DNA of 63,575 bases, the filler included, from Vannella sp. (taxonomy: Eukaryota): NCBI GenBank assembly GCA_023345925.1. It is 6 parts of 6 records of this genome, joined end to end, with 100 filler letters (N's around TTAATTAATTAA, not from the genome) between each part and the next. Parts side by side here need not be neighbours in the genome. Positions count along the whole stretch, not along the records: positions 8,166 to 21,800 come from JAJQQN010001425.1; 5 more parts are not named here. The stretch is one strand, 5' to 3'. Shown here piece after piece: positions 7,800 to 26,704 of this stretch. How positions within the stretch are numbered: position 1 is the first letter of the stretch; each line of letters opens with the position of its first letter. A program made the position numbers and the translations under genes. The notes under the pieces were generated by a model. It did not search any database. It was not told the origin of the DNA and saw only the letters and a program-made list of their open reading frames with translations.

Positions 7800-8065
7800 G
7801 GCAAAGAATGGTCCGGCGAATGGCGCAGCTGCAATATGCAATAATCATGAAAAAATTGTCCATCTTCCGATAAAGGTCCTAATATGGAGGCGCCCATTCC
7901 ATTCCGCGTCGGGCTCTTTTGCCTTTTTGACTCAATCAAATAGCTTTCATATTTCATCATTTCGATTTGCTTTATTTGATTGCCATGTTGATTGTCAAAA
8001 GGAACGCTTTCCTGTCATTGACCGGCAAGAGTTGACAAGGCACTTCACTCTTCCTGATGAACACG

Positions 8066-8165
8066 NNNNNNNNNNNNNNNNNNNNNNNNNNNNNNNNNNN
8101 NNNNNNNNNTTAATTAATTAANNNNNNNNNNNNNNNNNNNNNNNNNNNNNNNNNNNNNNNNNNNN
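8066..8165. other. Artificial contig spacer (44 N, TTAATTAATTAA, 44 N)
   Basis: The identical 100-bp spacer with six-frame stops occurs five times. Confidence 0.98.
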
Positions 8166-8198
8166 TTATTTGTCTTACAGAAAATAGGGTTCACTTCA

Positions 8199-9900
8199 AA
8201 GTGCACCCAAAATCACTCAGGGTACTAACAAGTGCACCCAAAATCTAGCACCTGTAAACCCTAACCATGACCAGGCACCAGAACAACCCCGAATTTTTCA
8301 GCGAATGGGGTCAACTTGCAAATATTTATTTCATTATCTGATACCTTATAAGAGCTTTTGATAGAATCTCATGAACCGATCAAGGACAGTGAGAAGGACC
8401 GGTTCCCGAATTCATCAGACAAGACAGAACTGCAATTGATTAGTCACCAGCGCATCTCATGGCGGGATTTATCTTCATGAGTTCAGACTCACTTTTATGT
8501 TAAGAACTTTTAGAAGACTTTTGATTCTGATCTAACGCCGTGGGTGGACCAAACATCGTTAGAGTTCGCAAAAATCAATAAAGGCAGCATCCTCATCCCG
8601 CTGTCGGAACAAACTGCATTATAATTTATTCGCCTGTATTTTTTCTCGCTATTCTAGGCTATTAATGAAATGGCGAAGACTCTGATGGGGAACGGACCTC
8701 GAATTTGGCAGTTTCAGACAGAAATCGATCTGGTGGAACGTCAGCGCATCTAAATTTTTGATGATTCTTTTATTGTTTAGACTCAATTATAAGTGAATTA
8801 AGATTTGATGGATTTTGGTGCCGTTCCAACATCATAGGAAGGACCAGGCACCAAACAAAACTCGGTGAAATTCTCCGGAGTCTCTCACTCTGTTTCCACA
8901 TCTCGCTTTCGAGTCAAATTGCAAAGTTTCTATTTCATAGGTGTGCATTGCATCTTTTGAAGCTATTTATGAACCGGTCCAAGATGCTGGAAAGGAACAG
9001 ACACCGAATTCAGTTTAATCTGGTTTGGAGATCTGATTTGTCTTCAGCGCACCTCGAGGCCGGACATTTTTTTCCGAAATCAGATACACTTATAAGTTGA
9101 GTATAATTTTGATGTATTTTGGTATCGGTCTGAGCTCATATGATGGATCAGACGTCAAATCAAACTCAGGTTTCCTTGCGGATGATTCGCTGGATCACCC
9201 ACAGCATCTGACCATCGGGTTCCTGTGAACATCCCGATAACTTAAACATTTCAAGTCAGCACGTGAAGCTATTTAGTGAATATTCAAAGGCTCTGAGGCC
9301 GATCTGGCCTGAAATTCCTATCAAAAAAGTGATGGTGAGGTCCTAAGCGCATCTCAGGACTTGATCGCTCTTTTTTCTTTATGACTCTTCTGTATGTCAA
9401 GCATTACTTGATGAAGTTTGGTACCGGTCCAAGGTCATTAAGAGGTGCAGGCACCAGACCAAACCCCGCTTACTTATACAACTGTTAGAGAAAGGTCATT
9501 GAAATCATTTCATCGGGTCAAAAAGCCCATTGATTATTCTTTAAATTATCTGATACTCATAATGGAATGGAATTCTAAACATGTGAAAGACCATAAGGTT
9601 GAAATAGTCTAAACATTTGTTGAGACATCAGCGCATCTCGGGGCTGGATGATTCTTTTTACTTTCAGACTCATTATTTGGTTAATTCTCATTTGATGGAT
9701 TTTTAAACCGGCCCGATTTCATTTGGATGACCAGGCACCAAATGAGACTGAGCGGACTTCGCAATAATTCGCAAAGTAAGTCGGCGCATGTAAGGGCTGG
9801 ATATTTCTTTTGATACTCAGCTTCATTCGTATATCAAGCATCACTTGACGAATTACGGGATCTGCCCGAGCTTAGCAGGTGGACCAGGCACCAAAAAAAG
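8199..9900. repeat. Degenerate tandem array, ~295-bp units built from ~150-bp sub-units with internal hairpins
   Basis: GCGCA(T/C)(C/G)T anchors at 8450, 8744, 9047, 9347, 9631 and 9784 (spacings 294, 303, 300, 284, 153). GACCAGGCACCA-type anchors sit ~100 bp downstream of each. No ORF of 60 aa or more in the track. Confidence 0.85.
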
Positions 9901-10237
9901 TCGGTCACATGGCAGAAAATTTGCCTGGTCAGTCTCTGCCTTTCTCAGAGTCTTCCGTGTCAGAAGAGTGCGCTAAACCTTAATTCGTATACAATTGTAT
10001 ACATGGTTATGTTTGAGAGATACTGGTTGTAGTGTAGGTAAAGGTATTCGAACCTGCATGTCCTGACCGGAGGCAGAGCATGAGGCAGAACGTACCAGCA
10101 CTTCTTTCAGTACTCCTACTTTAAAGGCTAAGCCGATAAGAGGAAGGAGCCCTTCTGACCATTCAACCAAACCGCAGAGCCAGACCGCACGGAGAGAGGT
10201 GCGATCCGCGGAAGGCGAAAAGAAAAAAGGATCTCAT

Positions 10238-10475
10238 CTCAAACACCCAAAAGGTGAAAAATCAAATTAGTCCAAAAGCTTATCCTGAAGAGATGGAGGT
10301 CATCAGGGCAAGCTGCGCAAATACGAGTTCTTCCCTGAGAGAAGTCACGAGTGGCGAGGGCATTTCCCCTTGTTTGGGTCCTCAAACACCCAAAAAGTAA
10401 AAAAATGAAATCAGTCCAAAAGCTTATCTTGAAGAGATGGAGGTCATCAGGGCAAGCTACACAAACACGAGTTCT
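10238..10475 (+). repeat. Direct duplication of a ~95-bp block (period ~143 bp) upstream of the GH92 gene
   Basis: CTCAAACACCCAAAA...AGTCCAAAAGCTTATC.TGAAGAGATGGAGGTCATCAGGGCAAGCT...ACGAGTTCT occurs at ~10238 and ~10381. Confidence 0.9.
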
Positions 10476-10624
10476 GCCACCCTGTTCCCCTCCACACGTG
10501 GATTTTCTCCCTGTTCCCCTTCACTCGGGGATTTTCTCTGGTAAGGGGGCATTAAAAAAAAAACTGCTTTGGATAAGCATTAATCTGGACAAGTTTGTTC
10601 ATTCTCTCACCGCACCTGAAGTCC

Positions 10625-13044
10625 ATGAGGTTCTTGCACTCAGTAGCACTCTGTGCCGTTATCATGCTCCTTGGCCGTAGTGAGGCATCTCTGATGGAAA
10701 AGGTGAACTTGTTAGTCGGAACTGCCGGTCATGGATATGGGAGCGGGGGAATACCTGTCGGTTCCCAAGTTCCTTTTGGCATGGTTCGCCTCTCACCAGA
10801 CTCTACGCTGACAGAGGAGATTTTCATTCCATGGACTCATACAGGAGGCTACCACTACAACGACACGCACATCCGCATGTTCTCTCACACTCATTGCGTG
10901 GGAGCAGGCGAGGTGAGTCTCCTCCCTCGCGCTGCAATGCCCTTTTGTTGACTGATTGGTATTAGTTAGACTATGGAACCATTGGTGTGATGCCTGCGAC
11001 AACCAAACCTCGACGTATCGGAACCAAGAACCTGGACCGCTACCCTTTTCTCCAAAGCTTCTCCCATGATGCAGAGACAGCAGAGCCCGGTTACTACTCA
11101 GTGGTGCTTCAAGAATCCTCCATTCTTGTAGAACTAACAAGCACGGCCAACGCTGGGATTCACCGATATACGTTCCCTTCCGGTACACCTGGCCGCTGGA
11201 TTATCTTCGACGTTGGCTACACCATCAAGTATCGAGGAGCAGCCGTGTCTCAAATCAGTATTGACAGCGAGACTCAAGAAGTGAGCGGCTATGTGCTCAA
11301 CATGGGAGAAATGTCTTCTCGCTTTGGGGGGATGACTGTCTACTTCTCTGCTCTGTTCAGTGAAAGCTTCACGCAATATGGCGCCTGGGATGACTCTGGA
11401 ATCTTTAAGGACGGCAAAAGCTTCGCCAATGGGACTGAAGCTGGAGGCTACATTGGCTTTCCTCCATCAGTTGGCTCAGCCGAAATGTATGTTGGTATCT
11501 CCTTTATCAGTGTGGAGCAGGCACGTGAAAATGTGAAGTCTCAACTACCATCTGCAACTCAAAGTTTGTCTTCCTTTGACTTGGTGAAGCAGCAGGCCCA
11601 AGCTCAGTGGGAAGCCCTTCTCGGCACAGTTGAGATTGTAAATGCTGGTCCGCTGGCCCAAGGTGATGATACTCTGACTGTTTTTTACACCGCACTCTAT
11701 CACACTTACCTTGCACCAACAACCTTCTCAGAATCCAACGGGCTTTATCTGGGGTTTGACGAACAAGTCCATACCCTGGCGGGAAGCCAAGAGGCCTATT
11801 ATACCGACCTGTCTTTGTGGGATACATTCCGCACGCAGTTTCCGTGGCTCGCACTATTCCAACCACGGATAATGTCTGATATTGCACAATCTTTAGTCTT
11901 GATGTTCGAACAAGGAGGAGATCTTCCAATGTGGCCGATGGCAAACGGCTATACCAATATCATGTTTGGCACTCCCTCTAACATCGTCCTAGCTGATTGT
12001 GTAGCCCATGGGTTGGATTTTGATTATGAAACGGCGTACAAGGGAATGTACCAAAGCGCCACTCAAAATCAAGCTCATGCAGGAAGGACAGACCTTGAGG
12101 ATTACCTGACTCTAGGCTACGTAGCATTTGAAAAGAGTGAAACCTCTGTCTGTGAGACTCTTTCCTACGCTTATGACGACTGGGGTGTCTCCTTAGTTGC
12201 TAAGCACCTTGGATATGAAGACGACTTTGAAACATTTTACAATCGCTCTTTCAACTACTTAACCCAATGGAGCGATAAGGAGCAGCTTATGTGCCCTCGC
12301 TACTCGAATGGAACATTCAGCTGTCCTCCCCGTCCTCTCAACCCAGCTGATAAACGATACGTGGAAGGAGACTCTTGGCATTACCGTTGGTTTGCACCTC
12401 AGCATGCCGACCTCTTACCCAACACATTCTCTTCGGTTTCTTACTACGTTGATCAATTGGAAGAGTTTTTCGCCATGAGCTTCAACGACACGCTGGCGCC
12501 GTTCAACATCCTGCCAAACCCGTACTATTGGGGGGGCAATGAGCACAACTTTTTTTCCGTCTATCAGTTTGCCTATGCCGGGCGAATTGACAGAACGCAG
12601 TACTGGATCCGAAGGCTGCTGGAGCGCAACTACCAGAATAGACCTGGTGGTTTGTCCGGAAATGACGACTACGGCGCACTCAGTAGCTGGGCCCTTTGGG
12701 GTTTCTTAGGGTTTGTCACCTCCTCCTCTTTGATGTACCCTCACTAACTGCCTGTGAACAGAATCTATCCAAGAGCAGGCGATGGCTCCTATGTGGCTGG
12801 TATACCGTACTTCCAGGAGGTTGTTGTCCATCGTGAGGGTGGGGACATCCGGTTTGTAGCGTACGATCTATCCGAAACAAACATTTACGTGGAGAAGATC
12901 CTTGTCAACGGGAAGACTCTCGTGCAGCCTTTCATTCAAATCAAACAACTTCAACAAGGTGCCACTATTGAGTTTTACCTCACCGCCACCCCTCACCCAA
13001 ACCCCTTCAGTCCACCCTCCCCAAGTTGGGGATCTGGAGTTTAG
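10625..13044 (+). CDS. Secreted GH92 alpha-1,2-mannosidase, 3 exons
   Basis: Signal peptide MRFLHSVALCAVIMLLG, then VPFGMVRLSPD, FSHTHCVGAG, SLWDTFRT, TLSYAYDDW, YVEGDSWHY, GNEH and GNDDYGALSSW. Introns near 10912-10968 and 12711-12761. Confidence 0.92.
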
Positions 13045-13176
13045 ATGGCGGGTCACAATAAACCAACAATGACTTGACATGGCATGGAAGAAAGGGGTGT
13101 TAGGACAAGGATTTCGTTTTAATGTGTTCCTAGGAGTGGATGAATGGGTGGATGGGTGATGTCTGTCCGTAACAAA

Positions 13177-16100
13177 CTAGAACTTATCTGTTGAAGAAGA
13201 CAAAGAGTCCTCTGGTCGATGCCGAGTAATCTCTCCAGAAGGGGGATTCAGTTTCTGTGAATCTTCGAGGCGTTGCTTCCGCTGGTAAGCTTCTGGGAAC
13301 AAGGCACGAACGATTTTGGCCACAACGTTTCGGGGCTTGCCGGTGGAGGGGAATTGATGCATGCGCACTCCTGGGCGCGAGTTGAGTTCAATGATTTTGA
13401 AGGGGTTGCCTTCTTCATTCCAAGGATGCACAATGGAATGGCAACGCACATCAACACCGCACACGTTCATCTGAACGGCTCGACACAGCTTTTCCATGAG
13501 GGCTTTGTTGACTTCTGGTGTGGCATCTGTTAAATCAACAGATACTCCGCCAGTGGAGAGGTTAGCCTTATCTCGGAGTAAAACCATTTGTCCAGCTTTT
13601 GGAACAGAGTTGAGCGTGAGTCCAGTGAAGAGAAGGACCCGAACGACTTCCGTATCAACGGTGATCTTGGTGAGTGGAGATGTGTGGCCCTCTTTTCGGA
13701 GCGGATTATCGTTCTCCAGCTCAATGAGTTCCAGAATGTTATGTCTCCCGTCTCCATAAACGTGTGCGGGAACTCGTTTGGAAACTGCAACCACTTTGTA
13801 GTCGACAACAAGGATTCGGAAGTCATCTCCATCAATGTGCTCTTGTACAATGAGACCAGGACTCTTCACCGCATGGAAGTAAGCCAAACGAGTGGCCTCT
13901 TCAAGCTCCATCGGAGTAGTAATGTTACAAGAAACTCCCCGTCCACTGCTTTCAGCCTCAGGCTTCACCACACAAGGATATCCCACACGGATGGCGGCCT
14001 GTTTAGCGAGCTCGATGAGTTCCTTTTCATACTCCTCGTCCGTTTCTCCCACAGCGGCACTTTCTGAGATCTTCATGGTCTTGCCGAACTCCTTCAGCTC
14101 AAGAGGCGTCTTGCCGTGAAGCTCGGCGTATCGCTCCTGGAGCTTAACAGTGTCAATTCTGTCCGGATTTCCTTTGCGCTCAATAGGAATCATCACAGAC
14201 TTGGGAACAGGATAGCCACAATAGGCCAGAATGTCGTACGAGACACTCTTTTGATCAGAAATCCAAATGGCCACGCCAGATGTCAAAGGAATCATCGATT
14301 GCTTGATGAGATGGAACTTGTTCTTGTAGGAAAGGCGAGTGATGCCAAAGTGAGGAGAAACGTTCTCAACAGTGATTCCCACTTTCTTCGCTTCTTCAGC
14401 AAGCAAATCGCTGGTGATCGTGTAGTCCTTGGTCTTGCCCAGAGAATAGGGTCTCAAGGAGTGGAAGTACGAAGGAGGCTGCTCGTAAGAGGCAAGGTCG
14501 ACCACCTGCTTCTTGATTGATTCTTTGAGTCGAGAACCCTCTGGCACAGTACTTGCTGAAACAGCCTTCTGATGGGCAATGCGGTTTCGCAACTTGTCTC
14601 GTCCGAGATTGCTTCGATGGCCGATGAGATATCGCTCAAGGAAGAGAATCATCACGTGCGCGTGAGCGGTGTTCACCTCTTGACTCTCAAAGACATGCCC
14701 TTCAGAGCCTGCAACAAAGGTCCAGATTCCAGAACTGTCCGTGCTCTCTGTGTCCGACTTACGATCGCGCTGAGTCTTCAACGCGTTCACCATCGACTCA
14801 AACTCAGAGAAGGGAACCCGGGAGTCGTTCACACCGTGAGCGAGGAGAACAGGTTGGTGGATCTTCTCGGCAGAGTTGAGAGGGGAGATGTGGTCAATGA
14901 ACTCCTTCACTTCGGGATCGCGCTCATCTCCGTACTCTCGGCGGCGAAGGTCAGCACGGTAGGGCGCAGTGTGGCTGAGGAAGTTGAAGAAAGAAGTGAT
15001 TCCGCAAGTCTCCATTCCACAAACCAACTGGGGGAAGGCGATCAACGAGGCCAAAGTAAGGAAACCGCCGTACGAGCGCCCCATCACCGCGATGCGTTTG
15101 CTGTCCAGTTCAGGTTGTTCTTCAGCCCAACGGATGACGCTACCTACATCGCTGATACTGTCCTCACGCTTCAATCCGTCATCAGAGGTGATGTACTTGC
15201 GCCCATATCCAGTGGACCCACGGACGTTGGGGGCGAGCACAGCCACTCCCATCTCACAACACAACTGGAAGGAAAGAGCGTGGTTATGAGGAGTGAAGCC
15301 AGGGGTGAACTGCTTGGCGGGTCCTCCGTGTAAGAAGATAACGACTGGGAGCTTCTTCTTCTTGGGTGTCTCTGAGGACGACGCATTGCTGGAGGTTCTC
15401 TTCCTCTTCGGACAGATGGGTGGTAAGGGAGGACGATAGTAGAAGATGGGGATCTTGAAGTTGCTGTCATGGCTCTCCGTGTGGTGAAGAGAAGGAACAA
15501 CGATGTTGCTTCTTTTGACGCCTCCTAGCTCGGAGAAGGTCCACTGTTGTACGATCCGCGTTACCTCATTGTAAGTGTAAACATCAGAAGGGCGAATGGT
15601 GCTCTCGTAAGAGAAACCAAGCATGTGACCGGTGTCGTCATACTGAAGGTGCGAGATGAGGCCAGGCTTGATCAACTCCTCTTTCCGATAGGAGAACTTG
15701 GTCTCTCCGTTGCGAGGGGACTCCGTGATCGAATCATCAAGGTCGTTGTCAAGGCCGAACTGGGCGGACTCGACCTTGAGCATGTAGAGGGCTGAGGCAC
15801 CCTCCAAGCTGGCAACAAAAGCAACAGACTTTCCATTAGGTGAGACAGAGATACAAGTGATGTCGCCATCGATCGCGTCCCCGCGGATAACAGAAGGGCG
15901 CTTAATGCCAGGGGTGGTGATGGCAAAGTCCTGTCCAGACAAGAGATCGTAGTAACGCAAGGAAAGGTATCCACCCTCAACATCAGAAGTGTAGAAGACT
16001 CCCTGTCCACTGGCAGAGAAGCAGGCCTTGCCCACGGCGTACTCGCCAGGTTTCCCCGTCTTGCCAACGGGCAGTAGAGTCAACTCTTCCGTATCCAGAC

Positions 16101-16833
16101 GAAGTAAGAAGATACGAGAATCAACCACAAGCTTGTAGAAGAGCACAAGTAGGTACGCTCCGTCTTGAGAGAACTCCAAAGGAGTCCAAAGTCCGCTTTT
16201 GAACTCTGGCTCTGTGGGGGCCTGGAGGATGGTTTTGAAGAGGGTAGGTTCGTTGACGTTACTCATGATAATGTCATACTCGTGCCCGTTACGGCGAGTG
16301 GTGGAGTAGGCGAAGTGTGAACCATCAACGGTGAAGACAGGAAGCCCGTTACGGCTCTCTCCGTCTGATATCAGCTCGTACTCCTCATCAGTGGAGCGTT
16401 CAAGGTTAACGCGAACGATTTGGAACCGCTCGTTACCTTCCGTGTCCACTTGAAGGTAGAGCATGGGGGATTCGACTCCCTTGGCCTTGGTGCAAGCCAA
16501 GATGGGGTCTTGTAAGAAGGTGAGTTGACGACGGTAGCCTCCGGGATGAGAGACGCGGTGGACTTGGCGGTTAGAGAAGTTCGTGAGAATGATTGCGGAA
16601 GAGCCCTTCCAACACTGCAGAGTGGCCTGACGAGAAGACTTGTACTTCTGATGAGCAGAGACGATGCGAGAGGGGATGGGAGGGACGTTGTCACTGGCTT
16701 TGATCTCTGGCACGTGGGCATCTTCGTCAGAGGAAGAATCTTCTTCGAGATCCAGTAGGGCCTCCAGTACCTCATCATCGTGTGCGAACTTCTTTCGCAT
16801 GCCGTAAGCCGGGCTGTGGTGTGTGTGAGGCAT
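13177..16833 (-). CDS. Fusion: S9 (prolyl oligopeptidase family) peptidase plus a cyanophycin-synthetase/GshF-type ATP-grasp ligase domain
   Basis: Beta-propeller repeats, LHGGP, PNVRGSTGYG, catalytic triad GRSYGG / NDSRV / EGH. Then VVKPEAESSGRGVS, IVQEHIDGDDFRILVV, RVPAHVYGDG, ANLSTGG, GVDV and IIELNSRPGVRMHQFPSTGKPRNV. One uninterrupted ORF. Confidence 0.9.
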   Translation of the reverse strand: MPHTHHSPAYGMRKKFAHDDEVLEALLDLEEDSSSDEDAHVPEIKASDNVPPIPSRIVSAHQKYKSSRQATLQCWKGSSAIILTNFSNRQVHRVSHPGGYRRQLTFLQDPILACTKAKGVESPMLYLQVDTEGNERFQIVRVNLERSTDEEYELISDGESRNGLPVFTVDGSHFAYSTTRRNGHEYDIIMSNVNEPTLFKTILQAPTEPEFKSGLWTPLEFSQDGAYLLVLFYKLVVDSRIFLLRLDTEELTLLPVGKTGKPGEYAVGKACFSASGQGVFYTSDVEGGYLSLRYYDLLSGQDFAITTPGIKRPSVIRGDAIDGDITCISVSPNGKSVAFVASLEGASALYMLKVESAQFGLDNDLDDSITESPRNGETKFSYRKEELIKPGLISHLQYDDTGHMLGFSYESTIRPSDVYTYNEVTRIVQQWTFSELGGVKRSNIVVPSLHHTESHDSNFKIPIFYYRPPLPPICPKRKRTSSNASSSETPKKKKLPVVIFLHGGPAKQFTPGFTPHNHALSFQLCCEMGVAVLAPNVRGSTGYGRKYITSDDGLKREDSISDVGSVIRWAEEQPELDSKRIAVMGRSYGGFLTLASLIAFPQLVCGMETCGITSFFNFLSHTAPYRADLRRREYGDERDPEVKEFIDHISPLNSAEKIHQPVLLAHGVNDSRVPFSEFESMVNALKTQRDRKSDTESTDSSGIWTFVAGSEGHVFESQEVNTAHAHVMILFLERYLIGHRSNLGRDKLRNRIAHQKAVSASTVPEGSRLKESIKKQVVDLASYEQPPSYFHSLRPYSLGKTKDYTITSDLLAEEAKKVGITVENVSPHFGITRLSYKNKFHLIKQSMIPLTSGVAIWISDQKSVSYDILAYCGYPVPKSVMIPIERKGNPDRIDTVKLQERYAELHGKTPLELKEFGKTMKISESAAVGETDEEYEKELIELAKQAAIRVGYPCVVKPEAESSGRGVSCNITTPMELEEATRLAYFHAVKSPGLIVQEHIDGDDFRILVVDYKVVAVSKRVPAHVYGDGRHNILELIELENDNPLRKEGHTSPLTKITVDTEVVRVLLFTGLTLNSVPKAGQMVLLRDKANLSTGGVSVDLTDATPEVNKALMEKLCRAVQMNVCGVDVRCHSIVHPWNEEGNPFKIIELNSRPGVRMHQFPSTGKPRNVVAKIVRALFPEAYQRKQRLEDSQKLNPPSGEITRHRPEDSLSSSTDKF

Positions 16834-17284
16834 GGCACCAGCACGAAAGTGATCGAAGACCAACGAACTGAAGCCAGACTTTGAGCCAATCAAAAGCCAG
16901 CATACTGTCTCTTCAAAGAATCAAGTTTTCGTTATCGTAGCTTAAGCACCCTCGCCAGTGATTCTTATTGTTAAGGTGAATTAAATCGCTAAAATTAAAG
17001 AAAACCCCGATTTCGTCTCCCGAAGGACTTGGTTTGGGAGAAGGGAGATTCACCGCCCACTAAACCCGTCCGCTGGCCTCTGTTGATAAGTGCTTCTGAA
17101 TTCGAGGGGCATCAACGAAGAACTGTCTGGAACCCTACACCTTCGCTCATGGGCGCCCTCTTCTGGTCCCATCTCTCGAAGTTGCAGTTCTCCGATTTGC
17201 TCTTGGAAGAGAGATACAAGTGCAAATGTGAATGTTAGACTCCCTTTCTTCGGTATTGGGCACCAATACAAGCAGAAGGTCAAT

Positions 17285-20039
17285 TTAAATGGGAATGGCG
17301 CCATAAGATAGGGCAGAAGTCTGTTCAGCAGTTTCTTGATTCTGTTTGTCCTGGAGGAACAACACAGCCGAATCCACAGTCAAATGGAAGTGCGAAATAG
17401 GAACATATTTGAGCAGTCGAGCTGTTGCCATACTACGGATGTGTGACTCTCGCAGATGAGCAAAGCAGATTAGAACTTGGTTTCTCTTGAAAGATTCAAA
17501 CATGTCATCAAACGCGGCAAGCGCACTGCATCAGAGTGTTAGTTAATTATTGCAGGAGATACACAACATACTTGGCATCAATTTTAGGGATATTCCGGGC
17601 ATCGATAATGAGTCCCGTGATGGCTTTCGTTTTTCGGGAAGAGCGGCTCAAAGAGACTGACAAGGAGGATGTTTCAATTAGAACAAAGGCACTCTCAGGT
17701 AGTGCATGGAGTTAATCTTACCAATGCGGTTGATCATACGGATAAGTTGTTCAATGTTACCAAAGTAGAGTGATTCGTTGATTCGGATGACGAGAATACC
17801 CTGAGTCCCTTTCAGTGCTCGGTCGCTTGTTGGGGAGAGATGGTGCAAATCATACCGAAAAGGTCTTGGCATCCTTGAATACGCGAACATCTCGCCATTT
17901 GTTGTCCTGAGTCTGTCCAAGAATCTCAACATGAGGGATTGTGGTGTGCTTCACCACAAGAAAGATGGAGATGCTGATGGCAATGATAATTCCCAATTCA
18001 GCGCCCAAAAAGAAGGTGGCCACAAGAGTGATCAATGTCAATGCAATCTCGGTTGCTGCTCCGACTTGAAACAGGAAGCCCAAATGCAGCCCAATCAACT
18101 TGTAGGCCGCAGCGATCACAATTGCGGCAATCGCGCTTTTGGGGAGATAGTGAAGTAAAGGAAGCTGAGAAATGTGAGCAGGCACATAAATGAGTACAGG
18201 TAGTACGTACCAACCACACAGCAAAAATGATAACAACTGTTGAAGTAATCAGACCAAACTACGAGCTTATAAGATAAAGAGAATAATTGCGTTGGAATGG
18301 TCCTACTAGGGGTGTCTTGGATCCAGCAGCGTCAGCGATTGCAGTTCGAGACAAACTGCCATAAGCCGGAAACGACCCAAAGAAGGACTATTGGAGGTGA
18401 GCTCTTAAACGATCCAGGTGGGAATGGACATACTCCAATAACATTGGCTGCACCAAATGCGACAAGTTCGCGATTGGCTGAGATTTCGTATCCATTCTTC
18501 ATGGCACACTTCTTTGAGACTGCGTTGGACTCCACGAAGCCAACCACAGCTATCATGAAAGACTCCAAAATAAGATCTCGAATAACTTCTGCGTTCCAGA
18601 AATTGGGAACAACCGGAATAGGGAATCCTCCTTTCACATCACCCTATCGCTGAGTGAGTGATCCGATTCTAGAGTAAATGGCGATTTGATTACGAACCAA
18701 GATAGCTACTTTTTGGTCTACGCTCCAGCCAGTATAGTAAACGACCAGAGTTGACCCTATGACAATAAACAGGGCCATTGGAACAAACTTGACGATCGGA
18801 ATGTACTTGCCAATCCGGCTTTTGACCTCGTCGTATGCCAGAATGATGGCCAAGCTTACGGCACCGATACCAAAAGAGTAATAATTGGTTTTGCTGATGT
18901 TTTGAAAGACGGCAATGAGCTTTCTCCATTCTGATTGGGGAACTTTGAATCCCAATAACTTGTCCAATTGGCCGATTAAGATAATACACGCAGCGGCAGA
19001 CACATATCCATGAAGAATAGGTCTAGAAAGTAAATTCTCCAGGAATCCTACTTTCACTAGGCCAAGAATCAGGCTGATGAATCCAACTCTGTCCCGTTCC
19101 CGAGTCATTGACAAGCTTAGGTCAAGTCAAAGCAGGACCTACAGGATACAAAGAGTCGCTGCCCGAGGAACGGTGTACTCAAAAAGACTAACAGGACCGC
19201 CTTCTTCATATCCAATGGATAACGCGGTGCCTGTGAGCAGGGCCACAAGACCTCCTGGACCCACAGCGAGTTGGCGAGAAGTTCCCATTAGAAAGTAGAT
19301 GATCATTGGCATCTAATACACCGGAGTTAGGCTGCCCTCTATCGTAAATGAGGCGCTCACCCAAGAAGAGTAAAGGCCATACTGAGGAGGAAGGTGGGCA
19401 ACCGAAGCATACGCTTCAAGAACCATCACTAAGTACGCTTCTGGTATACACAGAGAAACCTACCAATGCATTGAGGGATAGCTATCGCAGCGACGGTGAA
19501 TCCTGCAATGAGGTCATGGACTATCCCTGAAAGTGAGAGGCCAGTCGAGTAAAGAGGATTCAGACGTACACAACCACCTCCATTGATAACGAGGGATCCA
19601 TTGAGTGGCAGGGATGAAATAGGCGGCTTTTCGGATGCCGGTAAGAACTTTGCTGCATCCATTCTCCCGAATGTCTGAAACGTGTGAGGGCTTGCACAGC
19701 AATGGGTCGTTCCCATTCACCTGATAGAGACGGAAGGCATGACCGGGGAGCGCGACGAGGAACGGCTGAGTAGTTCTTATACTTGCGGTTGGGAGAAAGA
19801 TGTTGCTGTTGGCGTTGCTTTTCGAGTCGGTCATCGAGAAGGTCGCCGGCTTCCGATGCATCCTTGGGGGACTCGTCGTCAGACCCTGAATGCCAGCCTT
19901 GGTCATCACCCTCTTCGAGCCAGTCTTCGTTCCCCTCCAGGAGTTCGTCGGGTTCCTCAAAAGAGACCATTTCCGTCTCACTTTCCGCATTCGAGAGGAA
20001 AGGAGAGTACTTCTGCAACCACGCTCGCGAGTTGAACAT
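17285..20039 (-). CDS. SulP/SLC26 anion (sulfate) transporter with STAS domain, multi-exon
   Basis: DLIAGFTVAAIAIPQ, GTSRQLAVGP, LSRPILHGYVSAAA, ANRELVAFGAAN and STAS IRINESLYFGN, spread over many short exons. Confidence 0.9.
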
Positions 20040-20250
20040 GGCCGATCAGCCGCGAAGCAGAAGAGAAATGAACGCCCTCCGAGTGTCCAAGGAGCATTCT
20101 GTCGGAAAGGAGCCGAGATTCTCACGAACCAGAAACTTCCAAAGAAGTTTCGGCATTGATGACGTATTTGTGACGCTTCATTGCTCATTACAAATGGGTG
20201 ACGAATTGAGACAGTTTTAGTTGTTTGTTGCACTTTCAGCGTTTAAAGCT

Positions 20251-20307
20251 CCAAGTGCCCTCAGAGATGAACGCATTTTGTTTCCGTTCACCTCTTCATA
20301 GGGCTGG
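20251..20307 (-). promoter_or_regulatory. Eukaryotic SECIS element in the SelO 3' UTR
   Basis: Minus strand reads CCAGCCCU-AUGAA-GAGGUGAACG-GAAACAAAAUG-CGUUCAUCUC-UGAG-GGCACUUGG. This gives the AUGA..GA quartet, a 10-bp helix II (one G-U pair) and an apical AAA. Confidence 0.9.
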
Positions 20308-20363
20308 AATGTTGGGTGAAAGAGTGTTGCTATTGCGAGACAAAGCTTGTAAAGACCTTGTCT

Positions 20364-21800
20364 CTACGAAGATCAGGTCATGAAAGCTGTACCCCCTAGC
20401 CCAACACCTTCATAGATCTCGAGAGGGGCTTTGCGGAAGAACTTGAGGTGGGTTTCTTGGGAGAGTTCAGCATAAGGCGTCAGGAAGATGTTTTGCAACT
20501 CAAGAAGTGCAGTATAGTCTCCTTTTGCAGCCTCTGAGTAGGCTTGAACCAGCATCCATTCACGAGGCACGTACTTGGGATTGACACTTTGCATGTTTTG
20601 GGCGATTTGTTTTGGAGTTGTTTGCTCCTTGCCTTGGTCTTGCATGCATAGAATCCAGTTTTCCAACCACCTCTTCAAACCTTCTCGAGATGCAGGTGTG
20701 AGTGGCTTATAGAATGAGTCTGCAAGGCTGTCAATCATCTCCTCAGAACAACTCCCACTCTCCAGCAAAGATTCCGAAAGATAGCTCAGGCCCCGGAAGA
20801 AAAGGGTGTAGTCAGCTTGAAGCAGACTCATGATTTCCAAAAGATTTTGAATCAAAGAGTTCGCAGAAGGGCTAGAGAGAGGAGTTTGGAGTCCCAGTTT
20901 CTCGCCCCAAACTCTCATGAGTGCCTCTTGGGCTTTCTCTTCGTGTTGGTCAGCGATCTCAGCTGCTTGAGATTGTCCTGAAAGGTCCAGTAAAGGTTGA
21001 ACTGCTTTGCAAAGACTTGTAAAGTTCTTCGCTCCGGCAGCAGGCTGGTTTAGAAAACCATAGTGTTCCCCACCACCACTCCACATGTTCCAGAGAGGTT
21101 CAAACTTCTCAATGAACCCGAAAGGTCCATAGTCCATAGTGCGCCCAGCAACTAAGCAGTTGTCTGAGTTAAAGTTGCCTTGACAAAAGCCCACTCGAAT
21201 CCATTGGGCTGTTAAGCGGGACATTCGCTCAGAACATTCGCGTAGCATCTGCAAGATTTTTTCTTGAAGAGATGCGCCATCCAGATGAGGAAACTCCCGA
21301 AACAGCGTGTGTTCAACGATTTGTTGGAGCTCTCCAACCCGTTGCGAGTCCTGGCGGGCGCGTCGCTCGAAGAGTTGTAAATGCCCGACTCGAATAAAGG
21401 AAGGAGATACGCGACAAGTCATTGCCGCAGGATTGGTGACCATCTCATTGGGCTGCTGGAGTTGCGCCTTAATCTGAGCCATCAAATACTGTCGATAATC
21501 GGCAGGCATCGCGGCAAGCTGTCGCTCTGCATCTGGGGGTAGACTACGAACGTTCTGAGGGTTATACCAAGGTCGCTTAACAGTTTCAGTGCCGGAAACA
21601 GTGAGGGAGAGTGCGCGGGTGGTGGAAACTCCGAGGTGGAACATCGCTTCAGACACAAGGAACTCGCGAATGCTGGATCTTAAGACAGCTCGCCCATCTG
21701 CACCGCGACAGAAGGGTGTAGGGCCAGCTCCCTTCAGCTGGAACTCCCAGCGATGTCCGGTGGGAAGACTCACCTCTCCAATGGAGATAGCGCGTCCGTC
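20364..21800 (-). CDS. SELENOO: Selenoprotein O (SelO/YdiU protein adenylyltransferase), 5'-truncated by the contig end, Sec codon at 20373-20375
   Basis: DGRAIS.GE, QLKGAGPTPFCRGADGRAVLRSSIREFL, SFIRVG, GFCQGNFNSDN, DYGPFGF and NPKYVPREW. Ends ACC TGA TCT TCG TAG (T-U-S-S-stop), with a SECIS downstream. Confidence 0.93.
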
Positions 21801-21900
21801 NNNNNNNNNNNNNNNNNNNNNNNNNNNNNNNNNNNNNNNNNNNNTTAATTAATTAANNNNNNNNNNNNNNNNNNNNNNNNNNNNNNNNNNNNNNNNNNNN
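21801..21900. other. Artificial contig spacer
   Basis: 44 N, TTAATTAATTAA, 44 N. Confidence 0.98.
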
Positions 21901-22099
21901 AGGTGGTCGTACTCTCGGACACTGCGCCGCAAGGATCCAACGTGCAGCAGAAGCAGAGCTGCGCCGAAACATGGGCGTAAGAAAAAATGACCTGACACGA
22001 GCACTTCTTTTTCTGGACTCTTCCCCACACAAAATTTGCTTCAACTTTTTCACTTTCTTGTAACTGTACAATGAGTATTCACTCGTCTCCTGGCACCAA

Positions 22100-22936: not shown

Positions 22937-25900
22937 TTACCATCTTGAAATTTCTAAGAAAGCTTGCATAAAGGAAGTTGCGCCATTATGTAGGCGTTTG
23001 GTGACCAGCATCGCAAGAGTTAATGCCCAAGCACACATTGTTGAAGTGACAAGGAAAAAGGTGGCTTCCTCGAGAGGAAGGTAGACATCAAGAATCATGG
23101 GAACAGTTTTTCTTGGATTGATTATCCAAATACCCTGAATGATAGCCCAACGATCAACAACACACAAGTACACAAATGAAAGAGCGATACATGTTGCCCA
23201 TTGGAAAGTATGCTGGCGTAGGGCTCGAGCACCCAAAGACCATTGAAGAAGTAATACAGGAGTTGACCAAGACAGAATCAAACCAAGGTACAAGCCACTG
23301 GGAACATTCAACAAAAGGTGAACACCAAAAGCGCCTAATCCAGCAAGAAGAACACCAACAACCAAGTTAACCAGCGATCCGTAGAGAGGATAAGTTTTCT
23401 TGCTGTTGACTGGTGGATTCTTCAAAGCATCAAAACTGGGGAACAGAGAAAGCCAAACACCTCCGACCATCAAGGTTTCGATAGAAAAGAAGGCGTATTC
23501 CTCAATCGGAACCCAACCAACCTCGAAAAGAACTCGATTAGGACTATAGCCCCAAACGCCAAGATAAACAAGGAGATTGTCCCATGGTGTAGTGTAAACA
23601 CTGGCAATAGCGCACAATGCCAGAATCCAAAAGAATGAAGCGGTGAAGTATCCTGCTGGGGCTCGGCTCCGGCCAACTTCTAACAGGAAAGCCATCGGGG
23701 GAATCGTGAATAAAAGGTGGAAATGAGAGTAGGAGCATTCTGGTTGCTCACCAAGAGCACTCATGACGCAGAGAGTCCACAACAGGGAGACAATTGGTGC
23801 TGCTAACTGCCATAAAGTTCGAACAAAGAGGACGTAAAGTTCCACAGAGACAATGCGAAGGATTTGGGTCATCGGAATCACTTTTGCAGCAATGGAAAGC
23901 TTTCTTGCCGAAGAAACATGCACCCGTCCATCGAAGATTCGGAATTCAGCTTTCGAAATCTCCTTGTGAATGTCGTGGTACATTAGCCTTGCTAATTTGA
24001 TGGCAGGTCGAACATTAAGAGGAAGAAGCTCGATTCCTTTGTCTGCTGATTTGTAGAACTCATCAGTCCGAGTAAACATCTCCTGAATCAGATTGCGGAA
24101 TGCAGGGTCACTGTGGTCTCTCTGGTTCAAGTCAACCTTATGCTTACGACACAGATCTTCTGGGATGTATTGCCGTCCAAGATCAAGATCCTCATCGATG
24201 TCTCGTATCATATTGGTGATCTGGAAAGCATTTCCTAAATCCCTAGCATGTGGCATGGCCGTCTGCTGATCCTTCAGAGGGTGACTTCCCATTAAGATAG
24301 GGATCATGAAATCGCCAATGACAGCTGCACTTCCATCCATGTAAGAAAGAAGATCCTCCCAAGTTTGACAGACATTCACTCCGATATCCTTTTCCATAGC
24401 TCCAAAGAACCTAACAAATAAGTCATCGGGGAAGTTTCTTCGCTTAGCTGCATCGATAATTGCAGGGAGGGTGGGGTGAAGCTCTTCCAATCCTTTTCCA
24501 GATCTTAAGCAAGACCAAAAATCTCTTTGGAAGTTGTCAAGTTGCCGTTTCTTCTCCTCAGAAACTCGACCAGGCATATCAACGCAATCATCAGCAACAC
24601 GGAAGAGGGCATACATAGCTGCAGTGTCCAAAAACTGACGTGGACTCATCAGGGTTCCAGCAGCAAAATATGTCCTTCCGTAGAGATAGTAGAGTTTGAT
24701 GCACAAAAGATAGGATCGAACCATAGGAACTGAGAGAGAAAGCACATACAAGCCGAGGTGAATGATAAGAGCAGATCCAATAAGAATATAAGATGAAGTC
24801 CAAAACAATTGAGTAAGTAGCAATGGCGTTGGTTGGTTCCAAAACTCATTTGCCGAGAGCTTTCGATCAAGAACTCCAGCTGCAACGATACCAGAGACTA
24901 GAGCTGGAGGAACTCCTGGACCAGGGTGGGTAAGATGACCAGCGAAAACAATGTTATCGGCCAAAGAATCGATAGCTGGCTTGAAAACCAGAGTTTGAGT
25001 AAGGACGTTGGCAAGACCAAAAGCATTTCCTCGCAAGGCGTAGAATTCCTTCTCAAAATCGCTTGGGCCATAGTCCTTACGGAAAGAAATGTGATCACCA
25101 AGTTGTCCGGATCCTTTGGTGGGTTTGACTTGCTTACCCATGCGATTTATAACCAATTGGTACATCTCCTCACGGAAGGCAAGGTCATCCGTACCATTTA
25201 AACGATGAGAAAGGGGAATGAGAACAAAAACTGCTTCTCCACCATTCAACGCGACCAATGGATCTGTTTTGGAAGTAGCAGAAACATAAAAAGTGGGTTC
25301 GGGGTTGTTCTCGTGTTCAACAAAAACATCATTCAAATGCTTTTCCAAATCAGAATCAAAGAAGAATGTGTGATGCAAAAGACCATCCAATTGGCAATCG
25401 AAACCAATGTAGAATAGCATACAGGAAGGTGAAAGAATTTGCCGCTCCCAGTAATCACTGTCGTAACGACGGACGTGCTTTGGAAGTAAGACCTGCTCCA
25501 TATGATGATAGTCTCCAGCTGCAACGATCCCGCTCACACTCTCACAATGTTCCTGACCTTGATCATCGGTCAAACAAACAGATCTTGCAGTTTTTGAGGA
25601 GGAAGGAGACACTCGAGGGTCGTCAAAGTGAATTCGTTTGATTTCAGCATTCAACCTGATCTTGACACCGTTCGAACGTGCGACTTGCTCCAAAGCAGCA
25701 GCTGGCGCGGAAAGGCCATCCTTTTGTGGGTACCAAGTGCCATGAGCATGTCCAGAGTAGGCCAACATCGAGTACATTGCTGGGGATTCGGAAGGTGAAG
25801 CTCCGACAAAGATGACGGGCCACTTGAGAATCGTTCTAGCCACTTCGTCCGAAGTGAATTTAGAAAGATGGGACTCAAAGCTTCCGAACATGTCCATCGT

Positions 25901-26446
25901 GACGGCGGCCCAAGCGAGGGCAGGATCCAAAAGCTCGATAAAACTGGCCATCGGGCGCCAGATCCAATCACCCACACCTTTAACATACTTCTCATCAGCC
26001 TCAGCAAAGAATGCATCCAAGGTATTGGATGGGTCACGCTCATACAGCCAAGCTTTCAAACCTTCCACGGTGCCAGGCACATCGATCTGGTTGACTTCCT
26101 GCGTCGTGGAGTTGGCCAAGAACACCCTATAGGCGGGATCAAGGAGGGTGAGGTTGTACAGATCCGTACGGCGAGCACCAAAGCGATCAAACACGCGATC
26201 AAAGACGTCTGGCATCCAATACCACGATGGCCCAGCATCGAAGGTGAACGCTCCATCGGGGGATCTCAAAAGATGAGCGCGGCCACCCACCACATCAGAC
26301 TTCTCGTAGAGGATCACCTCATGACCAAGCTTTCGCAACTCCAACGCAGCCGTTAGACCAGAGAATCCTCCTCCAATCACCGCAATCGGAGACGAGAGGG
26401 AAAGTCCGATCAAGCCCAGCAGCACCAAGATGGCTACGAGCTTCAT
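22937..26446 (-). CDS. crtIBY: Trifunctional carotenoid synthase: phytoene desaturase CrtI, phytoene synthase CrtB and membrane lycopene cyclase CrtYc/d
   Basis: IAVIGGGFSGL Rossmann motif, FDAGPSWYWMPD and HPGPGVPPAL (CrtI). RVADDCVD and QITNMIRDIDEDLDLGRQYIP (CrtB). TTPWDN, PIEEYAFF and LPLEEATFF in hydrophobic helices (CrtYc/d). A possible last intron could extend the CDS to 22732. Confidence 0.92.
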   Translation of the reverse strand: MKLVAILVLLGLIGLSLSSPIAVIGGGFSGLTAALELRKLGHEVILYEKSDVVGGRAHLLRSPDGAFTFDAGPSWYWMPDVFDRVFDRFGARRTDLYNLTLLDPAYRVFLANSTTQEVNQIDVPGTVEGLKAWLYERDPSNTLDAFFAEADEKYVKGVGDWIWRPMASFIELLDPALAWAAVTMDMFGSFESHLSKFTSDEVARTILKWPVIFVGASPSESPAMYSMLAYSGHAHGTWYPQKDGLSAPAAALEQVARSNGVKIRLNAEIKRIHFDDPRVSPSSSKTARSVCLTDDQGQEHCESVSGIVAAGDYHHMEQVLLPKHVRRYDSDYWERQILSPSCMLFYIGFDCQLDGLLHHTFFFDSDLEKHLNDVFVEHENNPEPTFYVSATSKTDPLVALNGGEAVFVLIPLSHRLNGTDDLAFREEMYQLVINRMGKQVKPTKGSGQLGDHISFRKDYGPSDFEKEFYALRGNAFGLANVLTQTLVFKPAIDSLADNIVFAGHLTHPGPGVPPALVSGIVAAGVLDRKLSANEFWNQPTPLLLTQLFWTSSYILIGSALIIHLGLYVLSLSVPMVRSYLLCIKLYYLYGRTYFAAGTLMSPRQFLDTAAMYALFRVADDCVDMPGRVSEEKKRQLDNFQRDFWSCLRSGKGLEELHPTLPAIIDAAKRRNFPDDLFVRFFGAMEKDIGVNVCQTWEDLLSYMDGSAAVIGDFMIPILMGSHPLKDQQTAMPHARDLGNAFQITNMIRDIDEDLDLGRQYIPEDLCRKHKVDLNQRDHSDPAFRNLIQEMFTRTDEFYKSADKGIELLPLNVRPAIKLARLMYHDIHKEISKAEFRIFDGRVHVSSARKLSIAAKVIPMTQILRIVSVELYVLFVRTLWQLAAPIVSLLWTLCVMSALGEQPECSYSHFHLLFTIPPMAFLLEVGRSRAPAGYFTASFFWILALCAIASVYTTPWDNLLVYLGVWGYSPNRVLFEVGWVPIEEYAFFSIETLMVGGVWLSLFPSFDALKNPPVNSKKTYPLYGSLVNLVVGVLLAGLGAFGVHLLLNVPSGLYLGLILSWSTPVLLLQWSLGARALRQHTFQWATCIALSFVYLCVVDRWAIIQGIWIINPRKTVPMILDVYLPLEEATFFLVTSTMCAWALTLAMLVTKRLHNGATSFMQAFLEISRW

Positions 26447-26704
26447 CAGGGACGAGTGACAGGGCTAAGAACAAAGTGAAAGAGAAGCTCCGACAGAGAA
26501 ACAGAGAGACCGAAGGCCAACGAATGGCGGAGTTCTGATCATTCCATTTCAAAGAACTGATCGGAGACCGGACTTGGTCCCGCTCTTGGAGGTTTCTGAA
26601 ATAATAAACTGAAACTATATAAATAGAAGAAAAAGAAAGTGTTGATTGATTTTCGCATTGCATCAAATCATTCCGATTCAATCGCTCGTTCATTTGGAAA
26701 GGCG

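Follow-up and report, generated by a model that had tools for sequence, protein, structure and literature searches.

Vannella sp. encodes, in a single gene, an S9 serine peptidase joined to an ATP-grasp ligase of the CphA/GshF type. Both parts are of known kinds; their combination appears undescribed. The gene occupies positions 13177-16833 (minus strand) of the window, by which we mean the whole 63,575-nucleotide (nt) stretch of assembly GCA_023345925.1 analysed here, several contigs joined via runs of N; the gene's own contig is window 8166-21800. It is one uninterrupted frame of 1218 amino acids (aa) plus stop, without internal stops and in a single exon, as the original prediction made from this DNA (an intronless open reading frame, ORF, of about 1,200 aa) had it, with M1 and M12 as candidate start codons. 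The fusion is real, and the conserved residues indicate that both domains are very probably active. On a tentative reading, weighed below, the two sites may work together on a small acceptor in the cytosol.

Architecture and distribution of the fusion

AlphaFold2 modelling of residues 51-1190 (84-row alignment; mean predicted local distance difference test, pLDDT, 87.8; predicted template modelling score, pTM, 0.69) gave a beta-propeller and an alpha/beta hydrolase domain, then a low-confidence linker at residues 763-802, then the ATP-grasp domain. On the minus strand, the chain starts with about 50 acidic, poorly conserved residues (16684-16833), which on comparison with the homolog P0002 and by their sequence have no signal-peptide-like hydrophobic stretch. 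The S9 N-terminal helix and propeller follow at about residues 51-435 (15529-16683; AlphaFold2 strands and best Foldseek match 5L8S), the S9 alpha/beta hydrolase domain at about residues 436-740 (14614-15528; Pfam match and triad), and the linker, assigned by low pLDDT, at residues 741-801 (14431-14613). The ATP-grasp domain of about residues 802-1187 (13273-14430) has pre-grasp, lid, omega and core parts and contains a helical insertion of about 50 aa at residues 884-935 (14029-14184; alignment and model). A variable C-terminal tail, delimited by comparison with P0002, ends with the stop codon at 13177-13272. Of the four bacterial-type S9 relatives checked, three have a hydrophobic N-terminal stretch; since the fusion protein has none, it is likely cytosolic.

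The whole query was covered by 2 of the 120 matches listed (147 in total) in a large protein search, P0002 at 74% and P0003 at 73% identity. P0002 is the EukProt entry of Vannella robusta, MMETSP0166, and is colinear with the window gene except for short indels; MMETSP entries are transcriptomes. A separate cluster, P0489, spans the hydrolase and ligase parts at 79% identity to the query, and P0397 is a ligase-only fragment, uninformative on the fusion. HMMER against 1.84 billion representatives gave whole-query coverage in 1 of the best 150 of 24,669 matches, and both halves were matched by 5 of 395 proteins (the query, P0003 and three members of the V. robusta cluster). When the ligase region was searched separately (120 of 1142 matches listed), the two fusions came first and the rest were almost all CphA1-type proteins. 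Beyond these records the fusion was not found; the protein searches score limited candidates and list the best only, and distant fusions could escape them. None of 16 long or multi-stretch matches checked as further S9 plus ATP-grasp fusions carries both domains, and a scan of metagenome contigs with the fusion alignment gave 125 pattern matches and 0 confirmed loci. The ESM Atlas searched with P0002 returned only S9 clusters (0.83), a blank that is uninformative for the fusion since the Atlas covers clusters of at least 50. Other kinds of CphA-like ATP-grasp fusion were seen in passing, as tandem ATP-grasp with CapA/PGA_cap (P0156 from Halomonas, and P0392) and with acylphosphatase (P0350 and P0355).

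Because the same architecture occurs in a V. robusta transcriptome protein and in two further sequence clusters, the fusion is not a misassembly. Contigs of three runs (X1, X2 and X3) also cross the linker, with 0 differences and 0 joints, and one of them spans 14113-14655; these runs may include the window's own source, so that the bridging contigs are not independent support. DNA of the window was also found in biofilm and freshwater metagenomes. Conservation is higher in the ligase part (81%) than in the peptidase part (71-72%). The linker is about 50% identical to P0002 and P0003 overall, with residues 782-808 conserved (23/27, 24/27 and 26/27). The original prediction knew of no described protein with this architecture, and a search of full-text literature, with most subscription papers outside its scope, found no published description of an S9 plus CphA-type ATP-grasp architecture, of the standalone ligase-M20 pair described below, or of a native amoebal CphA-type ligase. 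The sole paper found with both "S9 peptidase" and "ATP-grasp" is unrelated in its available part (PMC13622209).

Active sites and origins of the two halves

Pfam S9 (PF00326) matches residues 521-734 with 101 bits against a cut-off of 22.6. S587 (codon 15073-15075), D670 (14824-14826) and H713 (14695-14697) lie in Ser-Asp-His order inside the hydrolase domain, with a G-x-S-x-G-G motif and the S9 fold of propeller and alpha/beta hydrolase; the triad and ligase motifs quoted in the original prediction are all present in the translation. The best Foldseek match is the acylaminoacyl peptidase 5L8S (TM-score 0.88 by target). The S9C acylaminoacyl-peptidase-like enzymes (5L8S, A. pernix AAP 1VE6 and mammalian APEH 7PX8) share the propeller and hydrolase fold and the Ser-Asp-His order, and the NDSR motif is as in A. 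pernix AAP. The best sequence and fold matches are S9C, yet identity to the best-matching solved structures is 17-18%, and the serine motif is GRSYGG, not the GGSYGG given for S9C in the motif list of PMC13181208 (available part). The lasso isopeptidase model scored 23.8 bits against a cut-off of 400, and among the fold matches the acylaminoacyl peptidases come ahead of PCY1 and OphP. The macrocyclase or transpeptidase activity and the osmolyte product suggested in the original prediction drew no support from the analysis. A link to the fosfazinomycin cluster was rejected, since the S9 gene there is described as not conserved.

In trees, the S9 domain clusters with chytrid and Umbelopsis proteins and two further rows, with support of 99 in a 261-row FastTree and 100/97 in a 51-row IQ-TREE (a subset, LG+G4, bootstrap not fully converged). 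The fungal members of this unstudied group are unfused. The triad is kept in 17/17 rows of the vannellid-fungal clade, and so is the Cys of an ETCG motif; that Cys and the R of GRSYGG occur together in just 1 of the other 244 rows. The S9 half had been thought to look like a bacterial subfamily. The subfamily is indeed mostly bacterial, but the peptidase sits with fungal S9s inside it and is, as judged from these alignments, a eukaryote-shared branch. Its place beside the chytrid and Umbelopsis proteins rules out a recent import from bacteria.

For the ligase half, the NCBIfam CphA model (TIGR02068-type cyanophycin synthetase) matches residues 941-1183 only, with 281 bits against a cut-off of 850. 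On the same part, the GshF model gave 201 bits (cut-off 425), and the NAGGN synthetase model TIGR03103 gave 140 bits (cut-off 569; E 1e-40), the match lying at model positions 334-543 only. NCBIfam and Pfam scans found no CphA N-domain, Mur-ligase domain or glutamate-cysteine ligase domain in the fusion protein, and family-model scans found no GNAT domain. With models below their cut-offs and diagnostic domains missing, identities as canonical CphA1, GshF or NAGGN synthetase were rejected, and the earlier statement that this is not a canonical cyanophycin synthetase stands. The NAGGN synthetase cluster, of GNAT/ATP-grasp type with a related ATP-grasp, has a peptidase neighbour and so a ligase-plus-peptidase logic of its own.

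Modelled on its own (pLDDT 84.9, pTM 0.81; omega subdomain present), the ATP-grasp half matched GshF 3LN7 (Z 25.7, root-mean-square deviation, rmsd, 4.4, 292 aligned), CphA2 7TA5 (Z 25.0) and CphA1 (Z 22.8, rmsd 3.6, 328 aligned), followed by ArgX (Z 22.0), LysX (Z 20.1) and RimK (Z 18.6). Residue roles were taken from the available part of the work on T. erythraeum CphA1 (PMC9427784) and transferred via alignment. The ATP, Mg and acyl-phosphate residues K220, K261, R309, D431, E450 and N452 (CphA1 numbering) are kept in 6/6 fusion-type rows, two of which belong to one 90% cluster, and the aspartate-site residues R323, N394, S396, G456 and R458 are all kept in the fusion. The key residues in the window protein are K862, K957, R1006, R1020, N1091, S1093, D1128, E1149, N1151, G1155 and R1157. 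Apart from His267, which is Ser here, the domain called intact-looking in the original prediction keeps both the fold and the catalytic residues of its subtype, that of the CphA1 G domain (7WAC, 7LG5, 7LGM) with omega.

The acceptor side is different from that of CphA1. Here CphA1 positions 165-220 were mapped by alignment to CphA1 homologues and by counting back from K220. E215 is replaced by W857 (W in 6/6 fusion rows; aromatic in 9/10 sister rows and acidic in 36/44 CphA1 rows), P165 by I806, T167 by S808 and A454 by R; position 218 is D. The combination that marks CphA1 and CphA2, an acidic residue for the polymer arginine (E215) and a G-P-S-T crevice, does not occur in the fusion, and with these cyanophycin-binding residues changed, the nitrogen-storage polymer suggested earlier drew no support. 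Conservation is highest in the predicted acceptor-binding subdomain (75/82 identities with P0002 and also with P0003), a pattern suggestive of selection for a specific acceptor. The insertion at 884-935 is found in all fusion-type rows (35/52, 34/50 and 40/52 identical) and is absent at such length from aligned bacterial relatives.

The nearest relatives of the ligase form a standalone CphA-like ATP-grasp family of about 325 aa (P0357 and P0398-P0404), encoded at 6 of the 84 loci searched (L004-L008 and L017) in four distinct organisms. Its members are 34-39% identical to the fusion ligase over about 95% of the domain (7/8 rows) and share with it an aromatic residue at 215, D218, Y225 and E263. 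Fusion rows and this family are sisters with support of 93 in a 97-row quick tree and 98/94 in a 42-row tree (LG+G4, long branches excluded), with CphA1 apart at 100/99; the trees are midpoint-rooted and were built without CphA2 and NAGGN synthetases. In an approximately unbiased (AU) test, forcing the fusion ligase together with CphA1 was narrowly rejected (p-AU 0.037). A genome-contig scan with P0357 gave 3 Bacillota CphA1 loci and no locus of the sister family.

Unlike the amoebal enzyme, the bacterial family is unfused, is without the 50-aa insertion, and is partnered by a separate M20 metallopeptidase. A PepT-like M20 gene starts within about 30 nt downstream of the ligase in 3 of the 4 organisms (L004/L017, L005/L006 and L007), and a gene of this type was found at 0 of the other 78 of the 84 loci. 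The two-gene units lie at L004:4162-6257, where stop and start codons overlap, L006:803-2895 and L007:166-1966. Identity among the three M20-linked ligases is 49-55% and among their peptidases 48-53%, values compatible with inheritance of the pair as a unit. The "make and trim" logic of the original prediction thus gained independent support from the bacterial neighbours. Peptidases of unrelated families adjoining ATP-grasp genes have also been noted for graspetide branches 7 and 8 (PMC8939145, available part).

Separate trees for the two domains therefore show different histories. Horizontal origin, claimed originally for the enzyme as a whole, holds for one half: the ligase probably came from the standalone bacterial family, as the tree and shared residues suggest, and the direction of transfer, from bacteria to amoeba, is inferred from the narrow eukaryote range of the ligase. 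Recent transfer of the whole gene was ruled out by the fungal S9 clade and by codon use like that of other genes (r 0.64 vs. 0.44-0.73 for others). With a ligase drawn from a standalone bacterial family and not from CphA, the two halves were most likely joined within the eukaryote lineage. Three hints point to Patescibacteria. A Ca. Pacebacteria member stands in a more distant branch of standalone ligases, Trp stands at conserved Gly columns in two proteins of that branch (5 and 9), and locus L004 contains a pilin-like gene. Trp at conserved Gly columns is consistent with TGA-recoded lineages. The Atlas clusters closest to P0398 are of mixed phyla.

A cyanophycin-synthetase-like ORF of 839 aa was noted in a different setting, at L084:4587-7103 (plus strand) of a 381-kb contig from an IMG/VR giant-virus bin, the viral nature of the contig being putative. 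It has a hydrophobic N-terminal stretch and CphA1-type G and Mur-ligase domains, scores 686 bits with TIGR02068 (cut-off 850), has no N-domain Pfam match, and keeps all G-domain catalytic residues checked; 7 neighbouring ORFs had no NCBIfam match.

A candidate coupled ligase-peptidase and its alternatives

We propose that the protein may be a coupled cytosolic ligase-peptidase in which aspartate or another acidic amino acid is joined to a non-cyanophycin acceptor. ATP and two Mg ions would be held by K862, K957, D1128 and E1149. The acceptor carboxylate would be converted to an acyl-phosphate stabilized by R1006 and G1155, which would be attacked by the amino group of the amino acid held by R1157, R1020, N1091 and S1093 (after the ATP-grasp chemistry in the available part of PMC9427784). 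The S9 domain would supply the small acceptor, or trim or recycle the ligase product. There is a precedent in CphA1, where a peptidase site in the N domain precedes this ligase fold in one chain and feeds it (PMC9262961, available part). The fusion departs from CphA1 in that it has neither N domain nor Mur-ligase domain, has W, S and R in place of E215, H267 and A454, falls in a separate clade, and carries a serine S9 peptidase vs. the metallo site of CphA1. In evolutionary terms, an ancestor of Vannella-like amoebae would have acquired a ligase from the standalone family, which normally adjoins a PepT-like M20 peptidase, and the ligase would have been fused to a resident S9 peptidase that replaced M20 as the partner. 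We hold the proposal as a whole at a little under even confidence. Functional coupling of the two domains, taken separately, is slightly favoured.

The case for an acidic incoming substrate, which we regard as a near-even call leaning to the negative, comes from two residues. R458 and G456 of CphA1 (R1157 and G1155 here) are kept in 6/6 fusion, 10/10 sister and 43/44 CphA1 rows and in 0/6 GshF rows, which have H and A at these positions (6/6). In the available part of PMC9427784, R458 of CphA1 is assigned to the aspartate alpha-carboxylate. GshF shares the other three aspartate-site residues, R323, N394 and S396, in 6/6 rows, which leaves R458 and G456 as the only ones that lean toward CphA and an acidic substrate.

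Several observations, including the sharing of these three residues with GshF, weigh against the proposal. An alpha-carboxylate of the kind bound by R458 is a feature of any amino acid. His267, important in TeCphA1, is Ser in the fusion; it is His in only 21/44 CphA1 rows and Phe in GshF. GshF and CphA2 are tied as top fold matches (within 1 Z), and a tree with the fusion ligase forced together with GshF stands in the AU test (p-AU 0.18). On the peptidase side, M20 and S9 enzymes differ in chemistry, and an S9 gene was found near 0/84 of the bacterial ligase loci. The M20 link comes from three organisms on short contigs, a small sample, and at L008 no M20 gene lies in the 909 nt available. The fungal relatives of the S9 domain are standalone, which indicates that the domain is functional without a ligase.

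Some of these points are shared by the alternative that fares best, which we nevertheless consider unlikely: a GshF-style ligase that makes a glutathione-like or other small di- or tripeptide, its acceptor being a free amino acid or a gamma-glutamyl compound, while the S9 domain merely turns the product over. Apart from the fold match and the AU test, the acceptor side resembles that of the GshF/GshAB module (3LN7, 3LN6), with a hydrophobic residue at 215 (W vs. L), an acidic one at 218 (D vs. E) and an amide at 219 (Q vs. N). The CphA-like R458 and G456 in place of H and A, the missing glutamate-cysteine ligase domain and the free tree, which joins the ligase to the standalone family, argue otherwise.

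Slightly less probable is an incidental fusion, two working enzymes in one chain with unrelated substrates. The different origins of the halves, the low-confidence linker and the whole-chain pTM would fit this, and the same S9 subfamily is fused to other domains too, e.g., TPRs or a second hydrolase. It is countered by the persistence of the architecture, conserved linker motif included, in lineages that are 72-79% identical, and by the peptidase that is likewise paired with the bacterial relatives of the ligase.

We give still less weight to a writer-eraser of protein C-termini, in which the ligase would add acidic residues to a protein tail and the peptidase would remove them. RimK and LysX add residues to protein tails, and both, together with ArgX, are the next fold matches after the CphA and GshF structures. 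The bacterial M20 partner weakly matches LysW-lysine hydrolase models, and the lineage-specific insertion at 884-935 could bind a protein. Titles cited in PMC13181208 describe some S9C enzymes as carboxypeptidases; the available part of the same source states that S9 propellers favour peptides under 30 residues, which speaks against a protein substrate, and a target protein is lacking so far.

A CphA2-like polymerase appears improbable. Such an enzyme would build a nitrogen store by linking beta-Asp-Arg or similar dipeptides, for instance those of ingested bacteria, and S9 would make the primer in place of the N domain. Like CphA2 (7TA5, 8FXH), the fusion has a single active ATP-grasp site, and the residues D362, R389, N393 and S395 of StCphA2, putatively for the incoming dipeptide in the available part of PMC10273328, correspond to D1060, R1087, N1091 and S1093 and are kept in 6/6 rows. 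These four residues are largely kept across the wider family as well, whereas the polymer-binding residues are changed (E215, P165 and T167) and the N and vestigial M domains of CphA2 are missing. Misassembly or read-through of two adjacent genes can be practically dismissed: the bin comes from a metagenome at low depth and the gene is not contained in full in any one public contig, but the fusion recurs in three other sequence clusters, the V. robusta record among them refutes an artefact, and contigs cross the linker.

Returning to the coupled ligase-peptidase, a more specific version is that Vannella-like amoebae make their own non-ribosomal Asp-containing peptide or polymer via a self-priming two-site enzyme, a Patescibacteria-type ligase with a resident peptidase. 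We regard this version as possible but rather doubtful.

Genomic setting and implications

The contig with the fusion gene is eukaryotic, as its flanking genes indicate. The GH92 neighbour gives a clean 771-aa frame after removal of two GT..AG introns (53 and 51 nt), and the sulfate-transporter gene on the other flank is split into short frames. The neighbours are thus intron-bearing, as first described; yet intronless long frames are not exceptional in the bin, which has 4 ORFs of more than 1000 codons. Rfam (8000-22000) and ARAGORN searches gave no match. Upstream of the fusion gene, window 17048-17105 has a contig depth of 35-40x vs. about 2-7x around it and many loose ends, which mark it as a probable repeat; it matched neither Rfam nor a tRNA. 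At window 18200, inside the sulfate-transporter gene, contigs from runs X1 and X3 carry an additional four bases, possibly an allele or an assembly error. Window 8166-10550 is AT-richer and has no long ORFs. Short words recur within it, among them a block present in duplicate near 10230-10470 and a tandem pair of 29 bp at 10480-10538.

Two further genes were noted on the other contigs. Window 22937-26446 (minus strand), on another contig of the bin, is one ORF of 1169 aa in which phytoene desaturase, phytoene synthase and lycopene cyclase (CarR-type) domains are joined, a CrtIBY-type carotenoid fusion; such fusions occur in thraustochytrids. Window 26639-32233 (plus strand) encodes PH, myotubularin, LRR, Roc and COR domains and is a Roco gene of the amoebozoan Pats1 type.

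CphA-type amide ligases have been studied in bacteria, and the literature search turned up none described as native to an amoeba. A single conserved, soluble-looking gene with two intact, opposing active sites is a possible route to a new amoebal peptide metabolite or modification. The closest relatives of its ligase belong to a bacterial family that is unstudied and has another kind of peptidase as partner, so the ligase-peptidase pairing appears to have arisen twice. If the function of the amoebal enzyme were solved, it would also explain the bacterial ligase-M20 operons and document a transfer from bacterium to amoeba followed by fusion. If an Asp-containing peptide or polymer is indeed the product, amoebae would have, in this enzyme, their own eukaryotic equivalent of cyanophycin-type synthesis, and the unstudied ligase-plus-M20 operon would gain a function.

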